From the IMG/VR virus record IMGVR_UViG_2511231131_000001: DNA of 64,000 nt, one strand, 5' to 3'. The position numbers and the translations under genes are program-made. Each line of letters opens with the position of its first letter. Within the stretch, counting starts at the first letter, position 1. This stretch comes from a virus. Its lineage: Duplodnaviria > Heunggongvirae > Uroviricota > Caudoviricetes. Positions 34,904-36,450 of this stretch are shown here, piece after piece. The notes below the pieces were generated by a model, which saw only the letters and a program-made list of their open reading frames with translations, was not told where the DNA came from and made no database searches.

Positions 34904-35368
34904 CAGGGTTTTCGTCATGGTTAGCGACTTTGCGGCGGTTTAGAAACTGACCATTAAAGTAAATGCAAACGATGATCTGATGATGGTAGCGGCCTAAGAA
35001 GCCAGACGCCACGGGGTATGAGTCGTCCCCCGTCAAAAAATCGACCGCAGAGTGTCCCCGTCTGTGTATTAGGGAACGGGGAGGCACAACAGGTAAGGGC
35101 GCTGGTGTGATTAACCAGATGAACGAGAAGGGGCCATCTGTTGGTCAGCGTCCTTTCCTGTTGCGTCTTCTTTTCAGCGTAACAGCGGTGCTTAACAGCA
35201 CTTTGGGTACAGTTCCACGAATTTACGGGTATATCCCGTCATGCTGAAAGCGCTAATCACGCTGGAAGCCAGGGTTATGCATCCCCTGTTACCGAATTGC
35301 AGCCAGGGCGCGGTGCGCCGAAAAGCATACGGAGGTGGAAGCCCTCGCCGGAGACGTACCCGGCAAGT

Positions 35369-35444
35369 GATGGTGTAGCTCAGCGGTTAGAGCGGTTGAC
35401 TGTTAATCAACGGGTCGATGGTTCAAATCCATCCACCATCGCCA
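35369..35444 (+). tRNA. tRNA-Asn (anticodon GTT)
   Basis: Cloverleaf by hand: acceptor GATGGTG/CACCATC, anticodon loop CTGTTAA, T-loop GGTTCAAATCC, encoded CCA. Confidence 0.85.
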
Positions 35445-35446
35445 AT

Positions 35447-35522
35447 GCCGGTTTAGCTCAGTTGGTAGAGCGCCTGCCTTGTAAGCAGGATGTCAGCGGT
35501 TCGAGTCCGTTAATCGGCACCA
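35447..35522 (+). tRNA. tRNA-Thr (anticodon TGT)
   Basis: Acceptor GCCGGTT/AATCGGC, anticodon stem CCTGC/GCAGG with loop CTTGTAA, T-loop GGTTCGAGTCC, encoded CCA. Confidence 0.85.
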
Positions 35523-36450
35523 GCACAACAGGTAAGGGTATTTTGCGACGTCGGAGATCGCCGAGCTTGGCAGAGGGTTCGAATCCCTACGAAGTACCCT
35601 TACCGTTGTGATGAATGCGCAGGCTGATGCGCGAAAGACATTGCAGCTATTGCGGAAAAGAGCTGTTCGGCGGGGCAATTAAACGCCCGTGAGAGTCTGA
35701 AATAACCGCAAGCCGGAGATCAGCACCGGTCATCACAACACAACAGGTAAGGGCATTCTCCCTTATGGGGCTTGGCTTAAATGCATCGAGTGCTCTTACC
35801 GTTGTGATGAAGTGCAGCTCTTTGAAGCAACCAGAAGATAAGCATCTGGCTTCACAACATAAACCGCAGGAACGACCAATAAACGGTAGTCCGTATGGAG
35901 AACACCCCGTTGAGGAAGAGGCCTGGCCGGAACCGTAACCGGCACTACAACGTTGAGAACACTGGCGTAACGGGGTCATATCCCAATCTACGAATAAATG
36001 TTGCGTTGCAGCGTGACAACCAGTGTTCTCAACATTGTGGTGAATGCACAGGCTGATGTGCCGCAACTACAGTAGTGCGCGCTTTGCGGGGCTTGCTACA
36101 ACCCTGTGTCGGAGTTCAGCACCGACCATCACAGTTTGATTCTCTGGCATGAGCATAACGCTGAAATAAGTCCAGCCTGGTGCGGCCCGATCACCCGCCG
36201 TTAGCTCCACGAAACGGAGCACGTAACAGGTAAGAGCATTCTCCTGTAACGGGTTCATATCCCAATCTACAGGTCCACCAAGAATGCTCTTTCCGTTGCG
36301 GTGAATGCGGCTAAGCGCACGCGGGGAAATGGTTATATCAGTCCATTCATTTCTCCTTGTTTCCCCGTCCACGGTGGATAACCAGCCAAAGGACACCGGG
36401 AGGCACCCGGCACCGCAGCTTTTTTATTCGTTAAATAATGGAGTGAGAGG

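Follow-up and report, generated by a model that had tools for sequence, protein, structure and literature searches.

The DNA analyzed here (the window) is a 64,000-nucleotide (nt) stretch of a P1-like phage that carries, around a tRNA-Asn and tRNA-Thr pair, an array of long hairpin repeats. This locus raises the question of whether the repeats are structured RNA elements and, if so, what they contribute to the transcript in which they lie. Five units were identified on the plus strand (U1 to U5; Table 1), one 5′ and four 3′ of the tRNA pair, in agreement with an earlier note on this DNA made from the sequence alone. When folded, all five units scored better than shuffled sequences on the plus strand (z-scores of -3.6 to -5.9), with weaker scores on the minus strand (-2.2 to -4.3). 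A repeat search of the whole window found the exact 10-mer AACAGGTAAG in four copies inside 1.2 kb and nowhere else in the 64 kb; when one mismatch was allowed, 10 matches were detected compared with 2.8 expected, a number reached by none of 100 shuffles. The exact 3′ motif of the units was also confined to the array within the window. The five long hairpins are restricted to positions 35084 to 36300 of the window and are not ordinary repeat noise.

Each unit was found to consist of a 13-bp upper helix (GGUAAG.../...CUUWYC), usually with a bulged A, a basal helix of 5 to 6 bp, and an arbitrary apical insert. The earlier note had described one unit in which both arms were exchanged for different sequences that nonetheless remained complementary, and this unit proved to be U4, the fourth in order and the third after the tRNAs. 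Its arms of 23 nt are 91% complementary, with ACAACGTTGAGAACACTGG and CCAGTGTTCTCAACATTGT pairing at 18 of 19 positions. A further compensated basal helix was detected in U5, where the G of the 5′ flank covaries with the C of GTTGCG to give GUAAC/GUUGC. The T-arm-like inner hairpin previously ascribed to the units held only in part, as it is canonical in U2 (GGGTTCGAATCCC), while U4 and U5 carry GGGKTCATATCCC and U1 and U3 carry neither. Small hairpins were also observed directly 5′ of U4 (GGCCGG-AACCGUAA-CCGGC, 35925-35943) and U5 (GCUCC-ACGAAAC-GGAGC, 36203-36219), and related GCCGG-AUAAACGUAA-CCGGC hairpins stand directly 5′ of units in phages Sasha and K751.

Table 1. Features of the array and its surroundings, in window positions
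Feature	Position	Strand	Remarks
Pban promoters and C1 operator Op72/Oban	34672-34717	+	transferred from P1 record positions 1273-1318; start of the transcription unit of the array
dicF-like region of the P1 annotation (misc_feature)	34756-34903	+	ends in an intrinsic terminator, stem 34877-34896 plus T-run
tmRNA-like element	34903-35083	+	upstream block GGTTTTCGT..AGCGACTTTGCGG..TTAGAAACTGACCA..TAAAT, tag ORF, two pseudoknot-like hairpins
Hairpin U1	35084-35165	+	A-U pair closes the bulge; interior has GGTGTGATTAACC; z -5.9; precedes tRNA-Asn
Degenerate module M0	35166-35368	+	T-like hairpin CCGG-AGACGTAC-CCGG (35348-35363) just 5′ of tRNA-Asn
tRNA-Asn(GTT)	35369-35444	+	
tRNA-Thr(TGT)	35447-35522	+	encoded CCA abuts U2
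Hairpin U2	35523-35610	+	canonical T-arm inside; z -4.9
Module M1	35605-35739	+	closing helix GUUGUGAUG/CAUCACAAC; D-like hairpin 35617-35632; T-like hairpin 35712-35730
plp ORF	35647-36066	-	annotation of P1-type records
Hairpin U3	35740-35806	+	z -4.3
Short module M2	35801-35858	+	closing helix GUUGUGA/UCACAAC; T-like hairpin CCAGA-AGAUAAGCA-UCUGG (35831-35849)
Hairpin U4	35943-36042	+	arms swapped for a complementary pair; interior CGTA-ACGGGGTCATATCCCAATC-TACG; z -5.4
Module M3	36034-36135	+	closing helix AUUGUGGUG/CAUCACAGU; D-like hairpin 36046-36061; T-like hairpin 36108-36126; cloverleaf-like minimum-energy fold
upl ORF	part of 36067-36396	-	annotation of P1-type records
Hairpin U5	36222-36300	+	basal helix GUAAC/GUUGC; z -3.6
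Module M4, STnc100/PasD type	36295-36427	+	closing helix UGCGGUG/CACCGCA; T-like hairpin CCGGG-AGGCA-CCCGG (36397-36411), then U-run; z -3.5

The hairpins belong to a widespread family with a covarying stem

The pattern AACAGGTAAG-N30-60-YCGTTGYGRTGAA was used to scan the viral sequences of IMG/VR and was found in at least 120 viral contigs, with 53 distinct units; the family comprises at least 110 distinct copies. Between their near-constant arms, the 53 distinct units carried more than 25 unrelated apical interiors, a diversity that does not suit the earlier suggestion that the hairpins are tRNA-like decoys; the tRNA-like character of the array belongs instead to modules between the hairpins (see below). 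The stems alone were then aligned for 46 distinct arm pairs from many phages, U1 and U4 included. In this alignment 95.5% of the cells were paired and 9 of the 19 pairs displayed changes on both sides, values reached by none of 500 shuffles and compared with 37 to 54% in slid controls. The wobble pairs were asymmetric, with U.G at one pair in 32 of the 46 stems and G.U at another in 12 of the 46, both of which would be mismatches if the opposite strand were the RNA. This asymmetry fits only the plus strand and indicates selection on RNA of that strand. One further stem position is a conserved U.U or U-A. The units are thus strand-specific RNA hairpins under structural selection. The earlier claim of selection on RNA structure rather than on sequence is borne out by these data, and the pairing, the absence of which from relatives was to count against it, is kept across many phages.

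Relatives of the units were traced to well-studied phages. A copy in phage lambda lies at ~44,790-44,863, 12 nt past the tR′ terminator, and the lambda segment 44,790-44,929, between tR′ and S, comprises a hairpin unit and a short module with the closing helix GUUGUGCUG/CAGCACAAC, followed by CCA. The lambda record has no feature annotated in this noncoding leader stretch downstream of orf-64. The segment was detected in 435 of 5,426 complete E. coli genomes and was annotated in none of the eight matches listed. The U2 interior recurs in Enterobacter phage BUCT554 with compensatory changes in the stem. When the Qin and DLP12 prophages of E. coli K-12 were scanned for hairpin units, no canonical unit and only fragments of modules were found. 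Searches of Rfam (15), both at gathering scores and at E ≤ 10, returned no family that matches the hairpins, only noise of the microRNA type. No description of the hairpin element was found in the searchable literature, and a literal sequence search of the literature returned nothing relevant.

tRNA-like modules alternate with the hairpins

Further analysis of the sequences downstream of the hairpins revealed that the 3′ arm continues without a gap into GUUGYGRUG, which pairs with CAYCRCAAC some 40 to 280 nt downstream. Compensatory changes are seen in this closing helix: one position is occupied by A-U, G-C, or, in lambda, C-G, and a second by either U-A or C-G. What the earlier note had taken as the tail of each unit, GTGAATGC followed by a second hairpin, is actually the start of a separate tRNA-like module, namely its acceptor-like strand and D-arm-like hairpin; in the window, such a module is closed by CAYCACAAC after a further 40 to 120 nt. 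In the common plan of the modules, a closing helix of 9 bp encloses a D-like hairpin, a variable core, and a T-like hairpin; CCA often follows and was found 3′ of 21 of the 58 distinct modules (36%). The stems of the two inner hairpins, GCGCA-GGCUGA-UGCGC next to the 5′ strand and GCCGG-AGAUCAGCA-CCGGC next to the 3′ strand, also covary, and in some phages the first is clearly recognizable as a D arm (GCUCAAUGGCGAGC) and the second as a T arm (GCCGGUUCGAUUCCGGC). The counts are derived from stricter, anchored extractions, which replaced a first automatic search for closing helices that was too permissive (1098 matches versus 905 in the control).

Within the window, cloverleaf-like folds were predicted for M1, M3, and M4. 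M1 is 96 to 98.6% identical to sequences of the lambdoid phages mEp460 and IME207 and of Stx phages, and its closing helix in mEp460 has the compensatory pair GUGGUG/CACCAC. Homologues of M2 were identified in phage Sasha and in the P22-like phage SPN9CC, in the latter between PL and an N-like gene. A compensatory pair, GUUGUGGUGG/CCACCACAAC, was likewise present in the M3 of phages D6 and P7. M4 matched the Rfam STnc100 model (RF02076) at 36297-36417 with 37.8 bits (E 3e-6), below the gathering score of 47, while its relative in phage K751 passes that score (48.8 bits). The fold of M0 is weak (z -1.4) and lacks a clean closing helix. Searches with tRNA models (RF00005 and ARAGORN) at E ≤ 10 gave no match to the units or modules and detected only tRNA-Asn, tRNA-Thr, and a tRNA-Met(CAT). 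An Rfam match to YrlA was rejected, as it consisted of just the two genuine tRNAs. Overall, the array is an alternation of hairpin and module with genuine tRNAs inserted at the junctions: Asn and Thr in the window, Ser in D6 and P7, and Tyr in Ro157c2.

The array maps to the predicted leader of the ban operon

The stretch 34900-36450 is 99.7 to 99.9% identical to vB_EcoM-813R1 and RCS47; relative to P1 itself, the identity is ~99% across 87% of the length. Rfam matches in the window were to the C4 antisense RNA, its a1/b1 targets, sok, and three tRNAs. The P1 record lists dmt, the C1-controlled Pban promoters with their operator, a 'dicF-like region', trnA (Asn), and trnT (Thr) in the upstream part, followed by the minus-strand genes plp and upl and then tciABC, trnI, and ban. 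The order of genes in the window is the same, the sole difference being two open reading frames (ORFs), of 78 and 275 aa, in place of tciABC. Annotation was transferred by setting P1 record position 1501 to window position 34900. Because the gene order matches the P1 record, the array is assigned to the ~1.75-kb untranslated leader of the C1-repressed ban operon, between dmt and ban and on the transcribed strand. This assignment agrees with the earlier proposal that the units share an operon with the tRNAs, as they lie downstream of Pban. A scan of 34500-37900 for consensus sigma-70 promoters detected no site, and the operon assignment rests for this reason on the P1 annotation. The terminator that closes the 'dicF-like region' was found by terminator scan to be strong and to lie only ~200 nt downstream of Pban, such that expression of the array and of ban would need read-through.

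Hairpin junctions are consistent with a processing signal

The junction between each hairpin and the RNA that follows was examined next. The 3′ strand of the basal helix is at the same time the first 5 to 6 nt of the following RNA, whether this is a module or a transfer-messenger RNA (tmRNA)-like tag element of the type found upstream of U1 (see below). Before modules, the basal helix CACAAC/GUUGUG (77 copies) was paired at 5.97 of 6 positions. Before tag elements, the basal helices CUAUC/GAUAG and CGAAAUC/GUUUUCG were paired at 6.0 and 5.0 of 6 positions, respectively, compared with 3.0 to 4.8 of 6 in cross-class controls. The basal helix covaries with whichever type of RNA follows. In Akira-type phages, a predicted sigma-70-like promoter, TTGACAGG-N17-TAGATT, is positioned ~45 nt upstream of the tag codon and would start RNA near GAUAGUUUUCG, which elsewhere emerges from the hairpin; this would provide an independent route to the same 5′ end. 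The hairpin sites are always located between functional RNAs or right after terminators.

Only the ~19-bp helix and the junction with the 5′ end of the next RNA are constrained, while the apical insert is free. On these grounds we tentatively favor, as a serious candidate that stops short of being probable, the view that the hairpin may serve as a 5′-flanking processing signal through which a long leader gives rise to tRNAs and small tRNA-like RNAs. 'Processing elements' had been among the earlier suggestions and is the one we retain. RNase III needs roughly two helical turns of duplex, and the unit stem, with 13 plus 5 to 6 bp and one bulge, reaches this length of about two turns (~20 bp). 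In addition to this length requirement, RNase III is suggested by (i) a 1988 paper by Daniels et al. (cited in PMC7547250), the title of which announces in vivo sites of RNase III processing in the late RNA of lambda; and (ii) the maturation via RNase III/E of DicF of Qin, a homologous region. In the scheme we envisage, a double-strand-specific endonuclease, most likely host RNase III, would cut the ~19-bp stem, and the upstream RNA would be left with a protective 3′ hairpin (for tRNA-Thr, a short trailer) and be parted from the downstream structured RNA. The 5′ strand of the downstream RNA would be freed by this cut to close its own terminal helix, and a single long C1-controlled transcript would be converted into tRNAs and stable tRNA-like small RNAs. 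RNase P could act additionally on the tRNA-like modules; Hartmann et al. in 1995 reportedly found the precursor of the P1 C4 RNA to be an RNase P substrate.

Several observations weigh against a processing signal of this kind. The sequence of the upper stem is conserved beyond what a signal satisfied by any helix requires. Recent horizontal spread could account in part for the conserved arms. Certain interiors recur, with ACGGGKTCATAWCCCAATC found in U4, U5, and mEp460 and the U2 T-arm interior found in BUCT554 and in the sequence L194, which hints at a function for the insert itself. Furthermore, the basal helix and the closing helix of the module are mutually exclusive, an arrangement that fits a folding switch as well as a cleavage site.

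Alternative explanations for the hairpins and modules

An alternative that we consider unlikely, but the strongest of those weighed, is that the hairpins, or hairpin plus module, are autonomous small RNAs (sRNAs) acting as tRNA mimics, as decoys, or as STnc100/PasD-type regulators that work by base pairing, with the variable insert or the module core as effector and the stem merely a stabilizing scaffold. The resemblance of M4 and its K751 relative to STnc100 speaks for this alternative, as do the tRNA-like ends of the modules, with CCA after 21 of 58, and the canonical T-loops of some inserts (U2 and those of the sequences L063, L190, and L197). PasD and STnc100 have been described as prophage sRNAs that act by base pairing and have both seed regions and targets (bioRxiv 10.64898/2026.05.13.724894), and STnc100 RNA has been detected in vesicles (PMC12370729). 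A paper on ManS/STnc500 was set aside as a parallel, as it concerns an unrelated sRNA. Regulators normally conserve their effector regions, however, whereas the inserts are the least conserved part of the units. M1 to M3 are also without terminators or promoters of their own, so processing would still be needed, and the alternative bears on the modules more than on the hairpins.

We also considered whether the units are cis-acting elements that keep RNA polymerase going through the long untranslated leader, either as boxA/nut-like sites for Nus factors or as put-like RNAs. The 3′ arm UGCUCUU(U/A)C (e.g., 35791-35800 and 36286-36294) resembles the boxA of rrn operons and lambda nutR; a 5-bp hairpin follows ~13 nt after this arm in a nut-like layout; the leader contains an internal terminator; and copies of the unit occur in PL leaders, one just upstream of an N-like gene. 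The boxA letters are nevertheless lost in covarying variants (GCAGCUUU, GUGCUUAU, and GUUCUCAA of U4), which keep the pairing and not the sequence, and because of this loss we set the resemblance aside as probably fortuitous. The motif is, moreover, base-paired within the helix instead of being a conserved single-stranded GCUCUU(U)A, and in lambda the copy follows tR′, within an operon on which antitermination by Q already acts. Antitermination is for us a quite improbable role.

Cassette exchange and the minus-strand ORFs plp and upl

The region 35523-35860 was found to vary among P1-like phages as cassettes. The window and RCS47 carry U2-M1-U3; P1, D6, and SJ46 carry only the U2 interior, which sits in the U3 slot; and in P7 and Ro157c2 the U3 interior alone is present. 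In addition, D6 and P7 gain a tRNA-Ser(UGA) and Ro157c2 a tRNA-Tyr. The break points of these cassettes fall within the repeated arms. This polymorphism exactly at the arms, together with the 96 to 98.6% identity of M1 to lambdoid phages and a 560-nt insertion in K751 relative to PhiSH19 that begins with a unit, would suit elements of DNA, with the arms acting as recombination linkers or as ends like those of miniature inverted-repeat transposable elements that shuffle cassettes and have no function in RNA. Such a purely DNA-level role appears highly doubtful: the G.U/U.G asymmetry and the compensatory changes point to selection acting on the RNA from one strand, the flanks have no target-site duplication and no associated transposase, and the units invariably share the orientation of the operon. 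Cassettes are indeed exchanged at the arms, but recombination there can be a consequence of their conservation and is better seen as such than as its cause.

In P1 and RCS47, part of the array is annotated on the minus strand as plp and upl, so that the earlier statement that the stretch has no credible ORF is at odds with the records; it stands insofar as both ORFs fail coding tests. Neither ORF matches a Pfam family, and the PHROG families that exist for upl merely mirror the annotated ORF. Among 13 distinct close relatives, variable sites were distributed over the codon positions 4:3:3 in plp and 3:5:4 in upl (22 sites), and six single-base gaps were observed. The minus-strand ORFs start with TTG or GTG. 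In P1, D6, and SJ46, the ORF runs on antisense into tRNA-Thr, while in the window and P7 it ends elsewhere, owing to a 215-bp cassette difference, and in Ro157c2 it changes frame; the C-termini are entirely different between relatives. The repeated peptides ENALTC and VDWDMxPL are translations of the repeated RNA arms. Both ORFs are unannotated in the P7 and D6 records. From their sequences, plp and upl are probably not genes but annotation artifacts carried into related records. That the locus encodes a lipoprotein (Plp) and Upl, as the P1 and RCS47 annotation and the PHROG families of the upl ORF would have it, with the repeats incidental, is extremely improbable given the missing Pfam match, the lack of a third-position excess, the frameshifts, the unstable C-termini, and peptide repeats that mirror the RNA arms.

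Comparison with known systems

The array was compared with four groups of known elements. M4 aligns to positions 31-147 of the STnc100 model, including the closing helix caUGGUG/CACCAug, and shares with it GGUGAAU plus a hairpin, a CCGGGAGGCACCCGG hairpin, and a U-run; its location in a phage leader region near tRNAs is a further similarity to STnc100 and PasD. M1 to M3 and all five hairpins are, in contrast, outside this model, to which M4 itself matches below threshold, and STnc100 is described as its own transcript whereas the modules of the window lie within the leader of an operon, downstream of hairpins of the processing type. The RNase III processing hairpins in polycistronic phage RNAs (T7 R1.1-R5; lambda N leader, sib, and late RNA), together with the intervening sequences that RNase III excises from the 23S rRNA of enterobacteria, resemble the units in having a ~20-bp helix with a mismatch or bulge, a position between functional RNAs, and a dispensable, variable apex. 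A copy of the unit is present in the lambda late leader, for which the Daniels et al. title announces RNase III sites. The units differ from these sites in being known from sequence alone and in having a widely conserved stem and a fixed junction with the downstream 5′ strand. To our knowledge, a conserved stem sequence with a fixed downstream junction is undescribed for those RNase III sites.

The modules share a terminal helix and D- and T-like hairpins with tRNA-like RNAs (the tRNA-like domain of tmRNA, YrlA, and the stable RNAs of the T4 tRNA cluster); some have canonical GCUCAAUGGCGAGC and GGUUCGAUUCC, CCA follows in 36%, and they are predicted to be co-transcribed with real tRNAs. They are distinguished by a 9-bp closing helix, the lack of an anticodon arm, and T-like loops that are mostly of 9 nt (AGAUCAGCA). 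Similarity was also detected to the dicBF leader of E. coli Qin, as window positions 34756-34853 and the sequence directly 5′ of dicF share 82% identity across 100 nt; an unannotated module of the M4/STnc100 type lies between the dicF terminator and dicB (K-12 1,649,439-1,649,589); and a DicF-like sRNA with terminator follows unit plus module in mEp460, BUCT554, and several viral contigs. The leaders differ in that the 'dicF-like region' of the window has no match to DicF (RF00039) at E ≤ 10 within 34700-36500 and that K-12 Qin and DLP12 are without a canonical hairpin unit.

Processing hairpins and tRNA-like phage sRNAs are known kinds of RNA; the new part is a widespread, unannotated element, for which we infer the mechanism proposed above. 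A conserved structured RNA element has been missed in P1 and lambda, among the best-studied phages, and was annotated as two proteins in P1. Its recognition removes two probably false genes and defines the hairpin family. The neighborhoods of STnc100, PasD, and DicF join one modular architecture of hairpin, tRNA-like module, and then sRNA or tRNA, which offers a testable model for how phages may cut long untranslated leaders into stable small RNAs.

A tag-encoding element precedes the array

The element directly upstream of U1 includes an ORF, GCAAACGATGATCTGATGATGGTAGCGGCCTAA (34965-34997), that starts at a GCA resume codon and encodes ANDDLMMVAA*, with a hydrophobic xAA end; the E. coli SsrA tag is ANDENYALAA. 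Relatives of the segment 34900-35090 were found in 265 phage records (Ackermannviridae, N4-like, T1-like, P1-like, and lambdoid). These specify 14 distinct tags, all of 10 codons and of the form A-N-[DE]-[DEN]-x-x-[LM]-x-[AV]-A, with TAA or TGA as stop. The tags differ synonymously at third positions, and this together with the constant 10-codon form argues for selection on the tag peptide. In 8 of the 14 tag types, a hairpin unit follows 81 to 91 nt after the tag ORF.

The element escapes the usual tmRNA searches. ARAGORN at default settings found no tmRNA at the tag element, and Rfam tmRNA models scored 14 to 33 bits on the tag elements versus gathering scores of 47 to 84. At a threshold of 85%, ARAGORN returns the correct tags, while at 70% it makes many false calls; relaxed calls were not treated as detection. 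No canonical alanine-acceptor domain with G3.U70 and a CCA end was found around the tag element of the window, and the ARAGORN call at 85% puts the 3′ tRNA-like domain inside dmt. Copies in Ackermannviridae have GCUGUUU/AAACGGC-U-CCA, giving U3.G70 where the canonical pair is G3.U70. In PhiSH19, relaxed ARAGORN proposes a one-piece tmRNA-like gene with the U3.G70 acceptor, and the K751 insertion described above splits this same gene. Klebsiella phage K751 has ~3 kb without an annotated gene that contains a tRNA-like element, a tag element, a hairpin unit, modules, and the above-threshold STnc100 match.

No report of tmRNA in these phage groups was found in the literature, and the tag template appears unreported for them. 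The hairpins, modules, and tag template might together form a split, noncanonical phage trans-translation RNA, with the hairpins as maturation sites like those of two-piece tmRNAs, although we regard this as improbable. If true, P1-like, lambdoid, T1-like, N4-like, and Ackermannviridae phages would widely share a split trans-translation RNA that current tmRNA finders miss, and during infection they would mark the proteins of stalled ribosomes with a degron of their own. If used, the template would bear on how phages exploit ribosome rescue, and the tag element is possibly a more important result than the hairpins.

Downstream of the array, at the tciABC position of P1, the region 36451-37495 was found to contain the 78-aa ORF, of membrane type, and the 275-aa ORF, a 'serine protease/lipoprotein'. 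The tRNA at 37523-37598, called Met(CAT), corresponds to trnI of P1, which the P1 record labels tRNA-Ile2.

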